From Bacilli bacterium (GTDB lineage Bacteria; Bacillota_I; Bacilli_A; RFN20; CAG-826), in the NCBI GenBank assembly GCA_024408105.1, contig JAKSVG010000001.1, positions 50,854-114,853 on the forward strand: 64,000 nt of DNA. Direction: 5' to 3'. Positions within the stretch are counted from its first letter, which is position 1. Every line of letters begins with the position of its first letter. Below, one piece after another: positions 56,119-64,000 of the stretch. The notes beneath the pieces were generated by a model, which had not been told where the DNA came from, did no database searches, and was given only the letters and a program-made list of their open reading frames with translations. A program made the position numbers and the translations under genes.

Positions 56119-57495
56119 TTACTCTTTAGTGATTGGTGTGTAAACAAACTTATTTTTTACTTGCTCGCGTCTGTAATAGCCAGCACGCGCTAAATTATCC
56201 ATAGATGTGCGCGCTGTTTCATAAACACATTTTTCACATTGTTTAAATTGTTGAATTGTATAATATTTGCCCATTGTGCAATGCCTCACATAAAAGTGAG
56301 CATGGCTTGGTCTTAATGTAGGATCACTTTCCAACAAATCTTCTGCAGCTCTTTTAAGAGCTTTTTCATCTAACTCTTGGAAAACTTTTACATTTACTTT
56401 TGGTTGATTATTAGCTGGCTGAGCAGGTTTTTTGTTATCAACAACAGGTTTTGTTTCATTGTTTATAGATGGCTGAATATATACTTTTTCATCTTCAACT
56501 TCAGGTTCATCGCTATAAAAAGCTTTTTCAGTTGCGTCTCTAGAAACTGTAACAACTCTATCAAGAACCAAAGATAGAATGTCATCAGTCATTTTAGCTG
56601 ATTCAATAACATAATATGTTAAATCATTATTTTTTTGAGCTTCTTTAGAGCAATTCGATAATAATCCTCTAGTATCAATTAGCAGGATCTCCATAGGAAT
56701 TAATGCTGCCGCATGAATTTTATGATTTTTTTGAATTACTGATTTAATTAAAAGAGCAGTCATCTCTTCATTGTAATTCTCAAAGGGCATAATGTAATTC
56801 ATAGCAAAGCTAATGCCAGCAATTTTTGTCAGAATATCAACATTTGAATCATTCAAAAATACAATCAAATTCTCCATCATCGATTCAATAGCAGATGTTG
56901 GTGCGCCATTATATTCTCGATTTATTAGTACTTTTTGACTAGGAGCGCTTATTTCATTTTCTCTATAAAATGAAGTTAATTCGCCACCCTCGAGTATTTC
57001 TAAAAATTTAGCAATTAATGACTCATCAATAATTAAATTATTAGTTTGTTCTAGCATGGTAAGAGCGGAGTAATATCTCGAAATTGGCTCATATAATAAG
57101 TCACAGCTTCTACCAGCGATAATATTATCTAAAGCTATATCATTTACAATGATGTTTTTAACTTTGGCGATATGTCGTAAACTTTGACGCATCATATCTT
57201 TACGGAAAGTTTCTTTTTCAATAGAGCCGTCCTTTAATGAATCAAACTCAGAAAAGACTTGTTCTATTCTAGAATTTATTTTTTCGCATTTGTTCAATAC
57301 ATTGCTTGTCAATGTTACATAATAAGAGTATTTATTAATATCTTTCAAAGAAAGATAAGACATAAAAGTCTTACGATAATTAATAATTTGAACCCAAATT
57401 GAATCAATTAAATTTGTTCCTAATGATTTCGCAACATCACTTCTAGTTGCGTAAACTTCATCCGTGAAACGAATAGCAAGATTAGAATTAGCCAT
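56119..57495 (-). CDS. Fic-family-like protein with a degenerate catalytic motif and a C-terminal winged-helix domain.
   Basis: AGISFAMNYIMPFENYNEEMTALLI aligns to the Fic core A-x-h-H-x-x-h-I-H-P-F-x-[DE]-G-N-G-R-x-x-R-L-L. The His and GNGR residues are replaced. The N-terminus resembles Fic_N (SLGTN in place of IEGTQ). C-terminal wHTH-like YYTIQQFKQCEKCVYETARTSMDNLARAGYY. Confidence 0.45.
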   Translation of the reverse strand: MANSNLAIRFTDEVYATRSDVAKSLGTNLIDSIWVQIINYRKTFMSYLSLKDINKYSYYVTLTSNVLNKCEKINSRIEQVFSEFDSLKDGSIEKETFRKDMMRQSLRHIAKVKNIIVNDIALDNIIAGRSCDLLYEPISRYYSALTMLEQTNNLIIDESLIAKFLEILEGGELTSFYRENEISAPSQKVLINREYNGAPTSAIESMMENLIVFLNDSNVDILTKIAGISFAMNYIMPFENYNEEMTALLIKSVIQKNHKIHAAALIPMEILLIDTRGLLSNCSKEAQKNNDLTYYVIESAKMTDDILSLVLDRVVTVSRDATEKAFYSDEPEVEDEKVYIQPSINNETKPVVDNKKPAQPANNQPKVNVKVFQELDEKALKRAAEDLLESDPTLRPSHAHFYVRHCTMGKYYTIQQFKQCEKCVYETARTSMDNLARAGYYRREQVKNKFVYTPITKE

Positions 57496-57579: not shown

Positions 57580-59391
57580 TTAATCTTCGTCATCAATAGA
57601 AAGAACACTCATAAAAGCTTCTTGTGGAACTTCAACTGAGCCAATAGCTTTCATGCGCTTCTTTCCTTCTTTTTGCTTTTCAAGCAATTTGCGCTTTCTA
57701 GAAATGTCACCACCATAACATTTAGCAAGAACATCTTTTCTGACCGCTTTAATATCTGCTCTAGCTATGACTTTGCCATTTATGGCAGCTTGTACAGGAA
57801 CTTCAAATTGCTGACGTGGAATAATTTCTTTTAGTTTTCTAACAACTATGCTACCTCTTTCATAGGCTGTTGATCTATGAACGATAATCGATAAAGCGTC
57901 AATTACATCTCCATTTAGGAGAATATCCATTTTTGCTAATGTTCCGCTCTTATATCCACAGTATTCATAGTCGAATGATGCATATCCTTTTGTATAACTT
58001 TTTAATTTGTCAAAGAAATTGTAAACAATTTCAGATAATGGTAACTCATATGTAATCACCATTCTTGTATCATCAAAATATTGGAGATCTTTATAAATAC
58101 CTCTTCTGTTTTGACATAATTCCATAACAGGGCCAACATATTCCTTAGGAGTCATTATATCGGCTTTAACATATGGCTCTTGGATTTCCTTAATTAAAGT
58201 AACATCTGGCAATTTTGACGGATTATCAAGCTCAATCATATCACCTTTGGTGAGATAAACATGATAAATAACACTTGGCGCAGTCAATATTAAATCTAAA
58301 CCGTATTCTCTTTCGAGTCGTTCTTGAACTACATCCATGTGAAGCAAACCTAAAAAGCCACATCTAAATCCAAAACCTAAAGCTTGCGAGGTTTCAGCTT
58401 CGAATACTAAAGATGCATCATTCAAACAAAGCTTTTCTAAGGCATCTTTTAAATCTAAAAACTTCTTACTATCCACAGGATAGAGTCCGCAGTAAACCAT
58501 TGGATTCATTTTTCTATAGCCAGGCAATGCTTGGGAACATGGGTTATTAGCATTAGTCACTGTGTCACCTGGAAACACATCTTTGATGTCTTTTATTTGT
58601 GCTGCAATATATCCAACTTCGCCAGCAGACAATTGAATCTTTTTTAACTCCTTAGGAGTTCTTATGCCGACTTCGGTAACAAGATATTCTTTTCCTGATG
58701 ACATGAGTCTAATTGTATCGCCAACCTTCACAACACCATTCTTAATATTAACCAAAACAACAACTCCACGGTATGAATCATAGAAGGAATCAAAAATTAA
58801 GGCCTGCAAAGGCGCATTAGAGTCGCCTTTTGGCGCTGGTATATATTTGACTATTGCTTCAAGCACATCGCCCACTCCAACGCCTGTTTTTGCACTGACG
58901 TAACAAGCATTATCGCAAGGAATGCCAATTCTTTCTTCAATTTCTTTTACAGCATTTTCCGGCATTGCACTAGGCAAATCAATTTTATTAATAACAGGAA
59001 TAATTTCCAAATTGTTATCAACTGCTAAATAGACATTGGCTAATGTTTGGGCTTCGACTCCTTGAGTCGCATCAACAACTAGCAAACATCCTTCACAGGC
59101 AGCAAGCGACCTACTTACTTCGTAAGAAAAGTCAACATGCCCCGGGGTGTCGATTAAATTAAACACATAATCTTCACCGTTTTGAGCATGATATTTTAAG
59201 GTAACTGCATTTAGTTTAATTGTAATGCCACGTTCTCTCTCTAAATCCATCGAATCAAGAAATTGCTCTTTCATTTCTCTTTTAGAGATTGTTTCAGTTA
59301 ATTCTAAAATTCTATCAGCCAATGTTGATTTTCCATGGTCAATATGAGCAATGATTGAGAAGTTTCTTATATGTGCTTTATCAAAATCCAT
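57580..59391 (-). CDS. lepA: Elongation factor 4 (LepA).
   Basis: G domain ([19 protein letters not shown]) plus the LepA-specific C-terminal domain. 603 aa. Confidence 0.95.
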
Positions 59392-59420: not shown

Positions 59421-61748
59421 TTAGTCATTCCAAAATTTTTTAACTGTTCTATTAACATCTTCTGGGCATGTTACTACTATGTAGTCATTCCATTCGTTTT
59501 TAAACAAATCCCTATAGGTTGAATTCATATATCTTTCGTCAATTAGCAAAGCAACTCCTCGGTCAGATTCACTTCTAATTACTCTTCCGACTGCTTGCAT
59601 AACCTTATTCATCCCTGGATTAATGTAACTATAGTTGTAACCTTTATTATTTTCTTTATCAAAGAACTCGCGAATCTTTTCTTTCTCAAAGCATATTTGT
59701 GGTAATCCAACACCAACTACAACAACGCCAATAAGTCTATCACTCACAAGATCTATACCTTCTCCAAATGCTCCTCCGACTACAGCAAGACCAACAGTTG
59801 TAACTTTAGGCTTGTCGGTAAATAACGATAAAAAGTCGCGCTTATCAACTTCGCTCATATCTTTTTCTTGAACGATTAAATTTGCATCATCAAGATTTAA
59901 AACATTTTTCAAATTTTCAAGATATTCATAACTTGGAACATAAATAAAATAGTTTCCTATTTTGCCTTTAACAAACTCTTTGATGTATGATGCAACAACT
60001 TTATAAGTTGAATTTCTATCTTTATATTTTATTGAAACTTTTGGAGCAATCATTAAACACAAGTTTTCTTTTGGAAATGGCGACGGTAACATTAAAACAG
60101 GACTCTCACCGCTGCCACCAATCATATTGATATAGTAATCAATAGGAGAAAGGGTAGCAGAAAAAACTACTTTACTTCTCACTTTGTCCAATGATTTTCT
60201 TAAAAAATCGCTTGGGTTTAAGCACAACAAGCAAATCTTTGTATCGTTATCGCTTTTAGAGATGTAAAGGCAGAAGTTTTCGTTAAAATACTCAAGCAAA
60301 CGATTAAATCTAACTAAATCATGCGAAAATGAAACAAATTCATCTGTTATGAATTCATGATGATGTTTTGACACATCAATTGATGCTAAAAGATACGCTT
60401 CAATTGCATTCAGCGAGGTTTGGCTTAAAGATTCAATTATTGTTTCGCCATTTTCTAAATTGCTATATTCAGAAAATATCTTTGATATTCTTTTTATGGC
60501 ATTCTTAATCTTTTTATGTTCTAAGTGCTTTAATGAACGCTTTACTTTTTTAAATAGCGATTCACTAATAGATGAACTATACATTCCTCTGCCTCTTTCC
60601 ACAAGATTGTGCGCTTCATCAACTAAGACAGCCATTTTTGAGGCATCTTCATCAAAATAACGTTTCAAGTAAACCATCGGATCGAAGAAATAGTTATAAT
60701 CACAAATTATTATGTCAACATATAAAGACAAATCTAATGATAATTCAAATGGGCATATTCCTTTTTTGGATGCGATGCCTAAAATTACTTCACGTGAAAA
60801 TTCGTTATATGCTTTTATCGAATTAATTAATATCTTTCTGATTTTTGTGTAATAGCCTTTTGCATAAGGACATTCATCAGGATTGCAGGCTTTGCCTGGG
60901 CAATAACACATTTTGTCTTTTGCAGTTATTAGAATGTCACTTGCAATAAGACCATTTTTTCTCATAATTGAGACAGTTTGAAAAGCTGTTTCTTTGCCAG
61001 AGCCCTTCGCAGTTAAGTAGAAAATTTTATCATTGGTTTCATTAGCAAAACTTTTTGCATACGGATAAAGAGTTGAAATTGTCTTTCCAATGCCTGTTGG
61101 GGCTTCGCAGAATAATAAACCACCATCCTTGGCGATGCCATATGAGTATTTAGCTAATTTCTTTTGCCCTTTTCTAAAATTGTCGAATGGGAAAGTGAGT
61201 TTTTTTGCAGATTCATTTCTAATTATTGTTCGATTATAAATTAATTTATAAAAATCAAGGTATTCTATTAGAAGTTTATTTATATCGGTTTCTAATTTCG
61301 ATGTTTTGAATGTAAATTTCTTAATCATTCTTTCATCCGTTAATTGATGGATGTATGTAAGATTAATATTCACATGATCCAGTCCTTTTTCATGAGCGTA
61401 CATTAATGCATAGCATTTTGCTTGACCTAAATGCCATTCTTTCTGCTCATTAAAAAATGACTCTAGAGGGGAAATGGTTGATTTTATTTCATCAATCGTG
61501 ACCTCATTTTTATCTACGATAATTCCATCTGCTCTGCCTTCTAAAGATATTTTGAAGTCATCCACATCAAATGTTTCAAATAATTGGTATTCAGAAATAT
61601 AATTTTTGCCTTGTTTTGTTTGATAAAAGCTATGAATGCGTGTGCCTTCATTCATAGTAGTTTTATTAAAAACGCGATTATCGATATCGCCGGTTCTAAG
61701 CAAAAAATCAACTAACTGATGAACAGATAATTTCAAATTCTTATTCAT
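59421..61748 (-). CDS. Nuclease-helicase: N-terminal RecB/Cas4-like PD-(D/E)XK nuclease domain fused to an XPD/Rad3/DinG-like SF2 helicase with an Fe-S cluster domain.
   Basis: N-terminus: GRADGIIVD (motif II Asp), IDEIKS (E-x-K), QAKCYAL (QxxxY). Helicase: Walker A EAPTGIGKT, 4-Cys cluster CYCPGKACNPDECPYAKGYY, DEAH box VLVDEAHN, C-terminal motifs (QAVGRVIRS). 775 aa. Confidence 0.8.
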   Translation of the reverse strand: MNKNLKLSVHQLVDFLLRTGDIDNRVFNKTTMNEGTRIHSFYQTKQGKNYISEYQLFETFDVDDFKISLEGRADGIIVDKNEVTIDEIKSTISPLESFFNEQKEWHLGQAKCYALMYAHEKGLDHVNINLTYIHQLTDERMIKKFTFKTSKLETDINKLLIEYLDFYKLIYNRTIIRNESAKKLTFPFDNFRKGQKKLAKYSYGIAKDGGLLFCEAPTGIGKTISTLYPYAKSFANETNDKIFYLTAKGSGKETAFQTVSIMRKNGLIASDILITAKDKMCYCPGKACNPDECPYAKGYYTKIRKILINSIKAYNEFSREVILGIASKKGICPFELSLDLSLYVDIIICDYNYFFDPMVYLKRYFDEDASKMAVLVDEAHNLVERGRGMYSSSISESLFKKVKRSLKHLEHKKIKNAIKRISKIFSEYSNLENGETIIESLSQTSLNAIEAYLLASIDVSKHHHEFITDEFVSFSHDLVRFNRLLEYFNENFCLYISKSDNDTKICLLCLNPSDFLRKSLDKVRSKVVFSATLSPIDYYINMIGGSGESPVLMLPSPFPKENLCLMIAPKVSIKYKDRNSTYKVVASYIKEFVKGKIGNYFIYVPSYEYLENLKNVLNLDDANLIVQEKDMSEVDKRDFLSLFTDKPKVTTVGLAVVGGAFGEGIDLVSDRLIGVVVVGVGLPQICFEKEKIREFFDKENNKGYNYSYINPGMNKVMQAVGRVIRSESDRGVALLIDERYMNSTYRDLFKNEWNDYIVVTCPEDVNRTVKKFWND

Positions 61749-61763
61749 AATTATATTTTATAC

Positions 61764-61788
61764 AAAAAAAGACTAATTTAATAGTCTT
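61764..61788 (-). terminator. Rho-independent terminator of fmt (minus strand).
   Basis: Minus strand: aagacta-ttaaat-tagtctt followed by ttttttt. It abuts the fmt stop codon. Confidence 0.7.
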
Positions 61789-62721
61789 TTATTTAAGAAT
61801 GATTCCGCTTAGGGATTTGTTTCCGTTAGCAAAACTCTTTCCGTCCATTTTTTTCTTTCCTTCAAGTTGAACAATATCAAGTTCTATCAGACCATCGATT
61901 AGCTGAAGTTTAATTGTTTTGTTAATATCAATTTTCCCAACCTCTCCTATTTGGTCACTAACTTTATGAGCTTTGAAAATTTTAAGTTTCTTTCCATCTA
62001 TATATAGATATGCTCCAGGCTCATCACTTAATCCCCTTATGTAATTTATAAATTCACATGAAGGTTTTGTTAAATCAAGTTTTTCATCTTCAGGTAAAAT
62101 TTTATCAGCAAAGGTCACAAGCGACTCGTCTTGACTGGCTCCTTGAAGATTTCCATTTAAATAATTTAACAAATTATTAATAGTAACATCTATTGCGGCA
62201 TCAGCTAGCTTATCACACAATGAACTATAATTATCATCTTTATCTATAACTACTTCTTTGATGGCAAACATGCGACCAGCGTCCATCTTGTCGATCATTT
62301 CCATAAGAGTTATGCCGGTTTTTTCTTCGCCATTTATAATTGCACGCTGAATGGGAGCTGCGCCTCTATATGACGGAAGAATTGAACCGTGAAGATTCAA
62401 ACAACCATAGGTTGGTATATCAAGCACAGTTTGAGGAACAATCTGCCCATAAGCCATTGTTAAAATCAAGTCAGGTTTCAAGTCTTTTAAAAAATCAAAA
62501 TCTTTTCTAATTCTGTGTGGCTGAAATACAGGTATTCCATACTTAAGAGCAATAGCCTTGGTCGGAACTGGTTCTAGTATAGCTTTTCTTCCTACAGGTT
62601 TATCTTCTTGAGCAACAAGGCCAACAAAGTTGAATCCATAATTAATTAATGCCTCAAAAACCTTTGCGGCAATGCTTGGTGTCCCCATAAAAACTAATCT
62701 ATATTCTTTCATTGTTTTCAT
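61789..62721 (-). CDS. fmt: Methionyl-tRNA formyltransferase.
   Basis: N-terminal formyltransferase domain (RLVFMGTP, HGSILPSYRGAAPIQ) plus C-terminal tRNA-binding domain. The ORF-track TTG start at 62760 was rejected. An ATG at 62721 or 62712 is likely. Confidence 0.82.
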   Translation of the reverse strand: MKTMKEYRLVFMGTPSIAAKVFEALINYGFNFVGLVAQEDKPVGRKAILEPVPTKAIALKYGIPVFQPHRIRKDFDFLKDLKPDLILTMAYGQIVPQTVLDIPTYGCLNLHGSILPSYRGAAPIQRAIINGEEKTGITLMEMIDKMDAGRMFAIKEVVIDKDDNYSSLCDKLADAAIDVTINNLLNYLNGNLQGASQDESLVTFADKILPEDEKLDLTKPSCEFINYIRGLSDEPGAYLYIDGKKLKIFKAHKVSDQIGEVGKIDINKTIKLQLIDGLIELDIVQLEGKKKMDGKSFANGNKSLSGIILK

Positions 62722-62802
62722 AACGATAGTTATTATAAGAAAAACATTTAGTATTTTCAAATATTGAAAAAAGTTATAAGATTAAATTTCCGGAGGTTAT
62801 AT

Positions 62803-64000
62803 ATGTACTCTGAATACAAACAAGTTAAACAATTTTTCCAAAGTGCAGAAGATTTACTCAAAACATCCAAAACAATGGAAGATATTTTTTTAAGAGCAAC
62901 TTCTTTGCACAAAAAAGAAAAAGCCATTACATGGATTAATGAAAAAGGAAAAGTTTCATCTTTTAAATATAAACATTACAAAACATATTGTTTTGAATAT
63001 GCATCTAGAATTTCACAAAAATTAAAGGATTATCCTCTTGATTCTGTTGTTGCTCTAAAATTTCACAATTGCCCAGATTGGCCATTAGTGTTTTGGGGTA
63101 TTTTAATGAGTGGTTATATCCCATTCTTAATTGATGCAAAACTTCCAAAGGAAAATACAGAAGTTTTGCTAAAAGAATCACACGCTGTCGCCATAATAAC
63201 TCAGGAAATTGTTACATATTCTGTCACAAGTATAAACTTTAATTCTCTCAAAGATGTTAAAGTTAACTTTAAATTTGCAAATAAATGGGCAAATAATGTT
63301 ATTTTTTGTTCCTCTGGCACAACCGGAAATGTCAAATTAATGAAATATGATGGCAAAAACCTTTGCTATCAAATCGCAGCTGCAATTGATATGCCAGAAG
63401 AAACAAAGGATATTATGTATCCTGGTGAGATAAATATTCTCGCTATCATACCTTTCCATCACATTTTTGGCTTTGTTGCAGTCTTTCTATGGTACACATT
63501 CTTTGGTAAAAATATTGTTTTTACAAAAGATCTATCGCCAAAAGAGGTTGCAAATGTTTCTCAAAAATGTTCCGTTACTCACATATATAGTGTTCCACTA
63601 TTCTGGGATTCATTAGCTCAACAAGTTAATAGAAAAGCCGAGTTAGAAGGCGAAAAGAAAATGGATTTACTTGCAAAAATGATCGCTTTCCATACTCACA
63701 AAATTTCAAATGAAGAGGCTGGAATGGCTGCAAGCAATATTGCGCTAAATACAGTTCAATCACAACTCCTTGGTAAGAAAGTTAGATATTGTATTTCTGG
63801 TGGAGGTTATTTATCAGCTGACACATTAAATACCATTAATGGTATAGGATACAACTTATATAACGGCTTTGGCATGACTGAGGTTGGGGTTGTTTCTGTT
63901 GAATTATCGAGTTATGTTGAACAAAGACTTAAAGGTAGCATTGGAAAGCCGCTCCACGGAGTTACATATAAACTAGCAAACACAACAAAACTCGAACCTA
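62803..64000 (+). CDS. AMP-dependent synthetase/ligase (acyl-CoA synthetase-like adenylating enzyme); 3' end beyond the window.
   Basis: Frame is open from ATG 62803 (GGAGG RBS 5 nt upstream) to the window end. Adenylation motifs SSGTTGNVK (A3) and NGFGMTE (A5) are present. Not in the ORF track because no stop falls inside the window. Confidence 0.75.
   Translation, partial: MYSEYKQVKQFFQSAEDLLKTSKTMEDIFLRATSLHKKEKAITWINEKGKVSSFKYKHYKTYCFEYASRISQKLKDYPLDSVVALKFHNCPDWPLVFWGILMSGYIPFLIDAKLPKENTEVLLKESHAVAIITQEIVTYSVTSINFNSLKDVKVNFKFANKWANNVIFCSSGTTGNVKLMKYDGKNLCYQIAAAIDMPEETKDIMYPGEINILAIIPFHHIFGFVAVFLWYTFFGKNIVFTKDLSPKEVANVSQKCSVTHIYSVPLFWDSLAQQVNRKAELEGEKKMDLLAKMIAFHTHKISNEEAGMAASNIALNTVQSQLLGKKVRYCISGGGYLSADTLNTINGIGYNLYNGFGMTEVGVVSVELSSYVEQRLKGSIGKPLHGVTYKLANTTKLEP

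Follow-up and report, generated by a model that had tools for sequence, protein, structure and literature searches.

A probable EndoDinG nuclease-helicase encoded between fmt and lepA in a Bacilli genome

A stretch of 64,000 nucleotides on contig JAKSVG010000001.1 of a Bacilli metagenome-assembled genome (GCA_024408105.1), here called the window, carries on its minus strand a single uninterrupted open reading frame (ORF; 59421..61748) of 775 amino acids and a stop codon, which is termed endoDinG below. The encoded protein is very probably an ordinary representative of EndoDinG, a subgroup of the DinG-like helicases of bacteria (XPD family, helicase superfamily 2, SF2), and combines a nuclease and a helicase in a single chain. 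The nuclease-helicase fusion had been pointed out in a preliminary description of this DNA and is correct, but it is already known and not new, because EndoDinG has already been named, is widespread, and is represented by the structure and biochemistry of a 38 % identical relative. The preliminary description had itself named, as a refutation, the case in which the fusion proves to be a described DinG architecture, and this case applies.

The assignment to EndoDinG is based on an end-to-end phmmer match to the PDB chain 9kqh_A ('DNA 5'-3' helicase'), with residues 1-753 of the query aligned to residues 1-747 of the chain (E 4.3e-144). PDB entry 9KQH is the DinG protein of Finegoldia magna (FmaDinG), with which the EndoDinG subgroup was first characterised structurally and biochemically (Li et al. 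2026, Cell Mol Life Sci, PMC13650095); the subgroup itself had been named and modelled one year earlier (Cheng 2025, PMC11981726). With Mn2+ as its preferred metal, the N-terminal PD-(D/E)XK domain of FmaDinG cleaves single-stranded DNA endonucleolytically, and it acts on DNA far better than on RNA, while the 5'-3' helicase requires a 5' tail (PMC13650095). ATP hydrolysis enables the nuclease to digest into duplex DNA, which the ATPase-dead variant D378A fails to do, and nuclease activity is almost lost in the variants H40A, E54A, R73A, D75A, E88A and K90A (PMC13650095). A 'gate' loop formed by residues 18-28 was found to rearrange (PMC13650095).

For a residue-by-residue comparison, the FmaDinG sequence was rebuilt from the HMMER alignment and then globally aligned to the 775-residue protein. 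The rebuilt numbering was checked at K249, K278/K280, C289/C294 and D378, all of which match the residue types given in PMC13650095. The two proteins are 38 % identical over 735 aligned residues, and equally so (38 %) in the N-terminal 180 residues. They share the same domain order, consisting of a PD-(D/E)XK N-terminal domain, a first motor domain (MD1) with an inserted four-cysteine Fe-S module and Arch domain, and a second motor domain (MD2). The catalytic residues H40/E54/R73/D75/E88/K90 of FmaDinG correspond one to one to H39/E53/R72/D74/E87/K89 here (61482..61634, minus strand), the Fe-S ligands C282/289/294/333 to C281/288/293/332, and K223 and D378 to K222 and D377. Similarly, most of the DNA-contacting residues (K248, K277, K279, R578, P683, I685 and R739) and the 'GDID-R' segment of the gate are kept. 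Thus, all defining features of EndoDinG that can be read from a sequence, namely the fold of the N-terminal domain, its catalytic residues, the C-terminal XPD-like core and the four-cysteine Fe-S module, are present, and the nuclease and the MD1/Arch/MD2 core (Pfam DEAD_2, HBB and Helicase_C_2) lie in one polypeptide encoded by one ORF.

The N-terminal domain (residues 1-180; 61209..61748, minus strand) is predicted to have a PD-(D/E)XK nuclease fold. A Pfam scan of the whole protein returned no match in these residues; when they were scanned alone, PF12705 (PDDEXK_1) gave a borderline match (E 2e-4) whose score of 21.8 bits just misses the cut-off of 22. Residues 1-190 were modelled with AlphaFold2 from an alignment of 15 sequences, and the model reached a predicted local distance difference test score (pLDDT) of 89.3 and a predicted TM-score (pTM) of 0.84. 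Its weakest block, residues 21-30 (pLDDT 54), overlaps the gate loop of FmaDinG. A Foldseek search of the PDB with this model gave 9kqh_A as the first match (TMq 0.78, E 1e-16), followed by Cas4 SSO0001, EXO5, AddA, ACE1, MGME1, AdnAB, RecE, lambda exonuclease and RecB. The predicted PD-(D/E)XK assignment can be regarded as settled, since the full-length alignment to a crystal structure, the confident model and the Foldseek matches all agree. The motifs of RecB-type nucleases can also be read directly from the protein, as G71-R-A-D74-G, E87-I-K89 and the QxxxY motif Q109-AKC-Y113 (61410..61424, minus strand), with the putative metal ligands H39 and E53 upstream of the first of these.

The remainder of the protein (residues 181-775) is an XPD/DinG helicase with a four-cysteine Fe-S module. 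The Walker A motif APTGIGKT, with K222, is invariant in the alignment (61080..61103, minus strand, as are all further features of the gene); it is followed by the Fe-S module with its ligands C281, C288, C293 and C332 (60753..60908), which were assigned by mapping to FmaDinG and by conservation, and by the DEAH box (Walker B, D377-E-A-H380; 60609..60620). Pfam places DEAD_2 at residues 276-397, the Arch or helical-and-beta-bridge domain at residues 453-577 (HBB, E 3.4e-8; 60018..60392) and MD2 at residues 590-754 (Helicase_C_2, E 6.4e-37; 59487..59981). The preliminary description had therefore correctly read a RecB/Cas4-type nuclease at the N-terminus and a Rad3/XPD/DinG helicase with four cysteines between Walker A and DEAH; the structure prediction that it had proposed agrees, with 9kqh_A and Cas4 first in Foldseek, and its proposed profile searches do so for DEAD_2 and Helicase_C_2 and only marginally for PDDEXK_1.

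Conservation was assessed in a MAFFT alignment of 123 homologues, the crystal construct among them. H39, E53, K89, Q109, Y113, the four Fe-S cysteines, K222 and the DEAH box are invariant in all 123. D74, E87 and R72 are nearly so; the exceptions are D75A, which was engineered into the crystal construct, a single glycine at E87, and tyrosine at R72 in both Anaeroplasma sequences. Over six distant genera, H39, E53, D74, E87 and K89 are invariant and R72 is again replaced by tyrosine in Anaeroplasma, while K222, C281/288/293/332 and D377 are also invariant in Faecalibacillus, Anaeroplasma, Listeria, Enterococcus and a Legionella plasmid protein. A pseudo-nuclease, by analogy with pExoDinG, was considered as well and was ruled out because every catalytic residue is present.

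Several observations weigh against the picture of a typical EndoDinG acting in DNA repair. The PDDEXK_1 score taken by itself lies 0.2 bits under the Pfam gathering score. R10 of FmaDinG, a proposed substrate contact that has had no mutational test, is replaced by histidine here and is histidine in 120 of the 123 homologues, and the Arch-domain DNA contacts D475/F478/K482 of FmaDinG are S473/H476/R480. Further, matches to the LexA/Cheo box (CGAACN4GTTCG, up to two mismatches) occur in the window at chance level (13 against 10.8 expected) and none lies in the spacer upstream of endoDinG, so there is no sign of SOS control. Other differences from FmaDinG are an additional cysteine, C283, beside the first Fe-S ligand, which is present in 108 of the 123 homologues, and the host, a Bacilli genome in whose lineage the gene is fixed between fmt and lepA.

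Another known architecture is that of ExoDinG, the DinG of Staphylococcus aureus and Bacillus subtilis, which likewise joins an N-terminal nuclease to a DinG-like helicase and couples translocation to degradation. However, its nuclease is a DnaQ-like 3'-5' exonuclease of the DEDD fold instead of PD-(D/E)XK, and according to the literature it has a pseudo-FeS domain in place of the four cysteines found here. No exonuclease family is among the Pfam matches of the 775-residue protein or of its N-terminal domain alone. In NCBIfam, the matches of dinG_rel, PRK08074 and PRK07246 are confined to residues 413-771, with 33-82 bits against cut-offs of 548-794, and similarity to rad3, YoaA, DinG and DnaQ-DinG fusions is below threshold throughout. 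Thus, the Pfam and NCBIfam scans revealed no DnaQ/DEDD exonuclease domain and the protein was not assigned to ExoDinG, in agreement with the preliminary description, which had also seen no DnaQ-like domain.

In AddAB/AdnAB, RecBCD and Dna2, the same logic is followed, with a helicase motor feeding a RecB-type PD-(D/E)XK nuclease, and the nuclease domains of these enzymes are among the structural neighbours of the N-terminal domain in Foldseek. The kinship in logic with AddB and Dna2 noted in the preliminary description is therefore borne out. Their motors, in contrast, belong to helicase superfamily 1, and their nuclease is C-terminal (AddA/B, RecB) or placed differently (Dna2). AddB and Dna2 carry an Fe-S cluster within the nuclease domain, whereas here it lies in the SF2 XPD-type helicase; residues 1-180 contain a single cysteine, C112. 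Outside EndoDinG, the best structural match to the N-terminal domain is Cas4 (SSO0001, PDB 4IC1; E about 1e-7, TMq 0.45-0.56), which shares the D...ExK and QxxxY motifs with it at an identity of only 16-19 %. Cas4 itself was rejected: the N-terminal domain has no four-cysteine cluster and the window has no cas genes. Archaeal and eukaryotic XPD/Rad3 have the four-domain Fe-S helicase core in common with the protein, and PDB chains of XPD match residues 306-740 (E about 1e-29). XPD has no nuclease domain, however, and in view of the extra 180-residue N-terminal domain and a score of 175.5 bits for TIGR00604 (rad3) against a cut-off of 246.95, the protein was not assigned to XPD/Rad3 proper.

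The nuclease and helicase activities of the protein are most likely those of FmaDinG, by homology. By analogy with that enzyme, the two RecA-like motor domains would engage a single-stranded 5' tail and move in the 5'-3' direction using ATP, while the Fe-S and Arch domains would split the duplex. The DNA would then be threaded into the N-terminal PD-(D/E)XK domain, where the single strand may be cut endonucleolytically, preferably with Mn2+. As the substrate of the nuclease domain would be single-stranded DNA, digestion would enter a duplex only when the motor runs.

The family is broad, which refutes the suggestion in the preliminary description that the enzyme may be lineage-specific. Of the representatives of 50 %-identity clusters, 1,439 were retrieved with the N-terminal 185 residues alone at E<=1e-3, and 668 remained at E<=1e-10. 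Among the best 150 of the 1,439 representatives, 73 are full-length fusions of 758-1192 residues (median 785), in all of which the domain is N-terminal except for one 1192-residue protein with a match starting at residue 394; the rest of the 150 mostly resemble metagenomic fragments that are truncated but extend into the helicase. With the whole protein, at least 7,999 matches were obtained, of which the best 120 are all at least 59 % identical and 737-781 residues long. Full-length relatives were found by tblastn among plasmid-labelled records of Listeria monocytogenes, Enterococcus gallinarum, Paenibacillus, Acetoanaerobium, Burkholderia, Cupriavidus and Caballeronia. The largest of these records reach 3.5 Mb and probably represent chromosomes or chromids; the Legionella plasmids of 74-137 kb, on which relatives were found as well, are genuine. 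Further full-length relatives are present in Anaeroplasma. In the genome collection scanned, Faecalibacillus is the closest relative. A contig scan with exact peptide patterns gave only four loci, which served for the comparison of gene order and not of distribution; the latter was taken from the search with the N-terminal domain and from tblastn. The published survey lists six orders, and neither its text nor the supplementary files examined make any mention of Erysipelotrichales; the real range of EndoDinG is therefore wider than published.

Full-length EndoDinG sequences of 34-40 % identity to the query were also seen in records labelled 'Listeria phage LM 4-11-1/4-14-1' and 'Enterococcus phage Efs 1-1-1' and in faecal 'Bacteriophage sp.' contigs. 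The scores of the phage-labelled copies (unannotated records H16-H30) equal those of chromosomal-type Listeria copies. These records probably represent host sequence that entered virome or phage assemblies, and carriage by phages was therefore not used as evidence.

The gene lies in a core chromosomal segment, with relA, hisS, aspS, tkt, dxs, a topoisomerase pair, dnaG and glyS elsewhere in the window, and within a minus-strand run of fmt, endoDinG, lepA, a Fic-like gene, a small ORF, hemW, a gene for an RDD protein, hrcA, grpE, dnaK and dnaJ. Upstream is fmt, encoding methionyl-tRNA formyltransferase (61789..62760; Pfam Formyl_trans_N and Formyl_trans_C), at a distance of 40 nt, and downstream is lepA, encoding EF4 (57580..59391; Pfam GTP_EFTU and LepA_C), which begins 29 nt after the endoDinG stop. 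The content of G and C at third codon positions (GC3) of endoDinG is 0.26, compared with 0.21-0.28 in the neighbouring genes. The order AMP-binding / fmt / endoDinG / lepA / Fic-like / hemW recurs in relatives at 54-68 % identity. The gaps in the conserved fmt-endoDinG-lepA array span 1-46 nt; the one between fmt and endoDinG is only 1 and 5 nt in two relatives, and in one relative a gene for a 214-residue protein is inserted there.

The preliminary description had the gene standing alone with its own terminator context, which the spacers do not bear out. An AT-rich 9-bp hairpin with a U-run in the fmt-endoDinG spacer (61764..61790, minus strand) may be a leaky terminator, but by RNA folding it is weak (dG -8.7 kcal/mol, z -2.1), it was not called by a consensus terminator scan, and it cannot exist in some relatives because their gap is only 1-5 nt. 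No hairpin is apparent in the 29-nt spacer before lepA. Thus, endoDinG is one gene of a co-directional array that is probably co-transcribed, and it does not form a unit of its own. In the region from 55.5 to 64 kb, consensus scans returned about as many sites as chance would give, namely 34 promoter-like sites where 39 were expected and 5 terminator-like sites where 4 were expected, and so do not speak for a separate transcription unit. The whole window was also scanned with Rfam (gathering threshold) and for tRNAs; both scans were empty, so that no RNA feature bears on endoDinG.

A different context was found in Legionella sainthelensi, where plasmid pLA01-117_113k (L008, 7986..11964) encodes a 28 % identical homologue with an intact active site. 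On this conjugative plasmid, the gene overlaps that of a 522-residue GIY-YIG nuclease by 8 nt and sits among genes for LigD, Ku, UmuD, a Y-family polymerase and an SOS-response-associated peptidase (SRAP). The region may be a mobile DNA-repair island. As the neighbours in Anaeroplasma, Listeria, Enterococcus and Legionella are other genes, the linkage to fmt and lepA is not a trait of the family.

From these contexts, a role of the protein in DNA repair, end processing or replication-fork processing appears likely. Such a role fits with vertical inheritance in a housekeeping array and with the repair-gene island around the Legionella plasmid homologue. The preliminary description had proposed a repair or defence enzyme; the first part of this proposal is retained as likely, while the second finds no support in the context. 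A defence role would make the protein an anti-phage or anti-plasmid nuclease-helicase that degrades invading DNA, either as a CasDinG-like component or as a stand-alone effector. Nuclease-helicase fusions are common as defence effectors, and some EndoDinG homologues are on Legionella conjugative plasmids, although the genes around the plasmid copy examined are those of repair and not of defence. The strongest match in this direction is to the PADLOC model PDLC01439 ('typeIV_DinG; CAS-IV-A associated'; E 1.4e-115), but this is an 'associated' model and its match is limited to the helicase part (residues 181-758; 59424..61208, minus strand). The models of true Csf4/CasDinG are weak by comparison, with 33 bits for NCBIfam cas_csf4 against a cut-off of 400 and E-values of 4e-9 or worse for PADLOC Csf4. 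CasDinG has a degenerate, cysteine-less pseudo-FeS module (PMC13650095), whereas all four cysteines are present here. In addition, no cas genes are among the genes of the window, a tandem-repeat scan of the 64 kb gave no repeat array, and the neighbours fmt, lepA and the dnaK operon, the synteny kept in relatives of 54-68 % identity and the native composition are the opposite of a variable defence island. On the Csf4 scores, the Fe-S cysteines, the neighbours and the repeat scan, the protein was not assigned to CasDinG/Csf4, and a function in defence is considered quite improbable. Since PDLC01439 scores strongly on an EndoDinG in a housekeeping context, with hardly any match to the models of true Csf4, EndoDinG genes may be mislabelled as CRISPR type IV components when defence systems are annotated automatically.

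Among roles other than defence, the position between two translation genes, kept with gaps of 1-46 nt, would also suit an enzyme acting on RNA, in the quality control of rRNA or mRNA. This would be analogous to the ExoDinG of Listeria, which, according to the title of PMC12774634 and to a sentence in PMC13650095 that cites this work, is linked as an exonuclease to the removal of unprocessed rRNA. However, the linkage to fmt and lepA is absent in Anaeroplasma, Listeria, Enterococcus and Legionella, and adjacency of genes in a core region is weak evidence of function; an RNA-acting role is the least probable of the functions considered. Somewhat less improbable than either of these two, yet still unlikely, is a broader proposal for this gut Bacilli lineage, in which EndoDinG, as a vertically inherited core gene of the fmt-endoDinG-lepA array next to the dnaK operon, has a job tied to translation or RNA quality control, or is the main end-resection or fork-processing enzyme of these small genomes, replacing other end-processing enzymes. 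Either job, if true, would be the first in vivo role for the EndoDinG family.

As a discovery, the fusion carries little weight: publications of 2025-2026 already cover its architecture, structure and in vitro mechanism, and it is spread over more than 1,000 clusters at 50 % identity. Modestly new are the range beyond the six published orders, with full-length members of intact active site in Listeria, Enterococcus, Paenibacillus, Anaeroplasma, Faecalibacillus-like Bacilli, Burkholderiales and Legionella plasmids, the conserved place of endoDinG between fmt and lepA in this lineage, and its setting in a repair island in Legionella. The stable core position in Bacilli and the Legionella island (LigD/Ku/UmuDC/GIY-YIG) are the first hints of an in vivo role and favour repair over defence. 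Functional tests in F. magna were not possible for the authors of the structural study (PMC13650095). Listeria and Enterococcus are genetically tractable carriers of EndoDinG in which functional tests could be made.

The start codon of endoDinG is backed by the alignment of residue 1 with FmaDinG. No Shine-Dalgarno-like sequence precedes it; the spacer (61749..61788, minus strand) reads ...TTTTTTTGTATAAAATATAATT-ATG, and -10-like boxes (TATAAA/TATAAT) lie within 9 nt of the ATG. It is possible that the endoDinG message is leaderless or re-initiated. The start of the fmt ORF is listed at a TTG codon (62760), and homologues of 310 residues would fit an ATG at 62721 (MKTMKEYRL...). The best promoter-like site of the region, TTGAAA-17-TATAAT (11/12), is located at 62760..62732 on the minus strand, about 10 nt upstream of this ATG, which would imply a very short or absent leader.

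Two other neighbours were also inspected. The 458-residue protein encoded directly downstream of lepA (56119..57495, minus strand) shows weak similarity to Fic (Pfam Fic, E 0.019; PADLOC SoFic, E 4.5e-8). In place of the Fic motif HPFx[D/E]GNGR, the protein has M-P-F-E-N-Y-N-E-E, and it looks like a pseudo-Fic because the catalytic histidine is replaced. Proteins of similar size (463, 490 and 475 residues) occupy the position between lepA and hemW in relatives, as compared by size and position alone. Divergently from fmt, an ORF of at least 416 residues that runs off the end of the window (62751..64000, plus strand) carries the AMP-binding signature SSGTTG. The Faecalibacillus gene at the corresponding position encodes 703 residues with Pfam AMP-binding and PP-binding domains, and genes for 573-667 residues with both domains are present in three further relatives; one of these genes lies next to fmt, and the other two are 1-3 genes away from it. 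This suggests that the ORF next to fmt encodes a conserved stand-alone adenylation/carrier protein.

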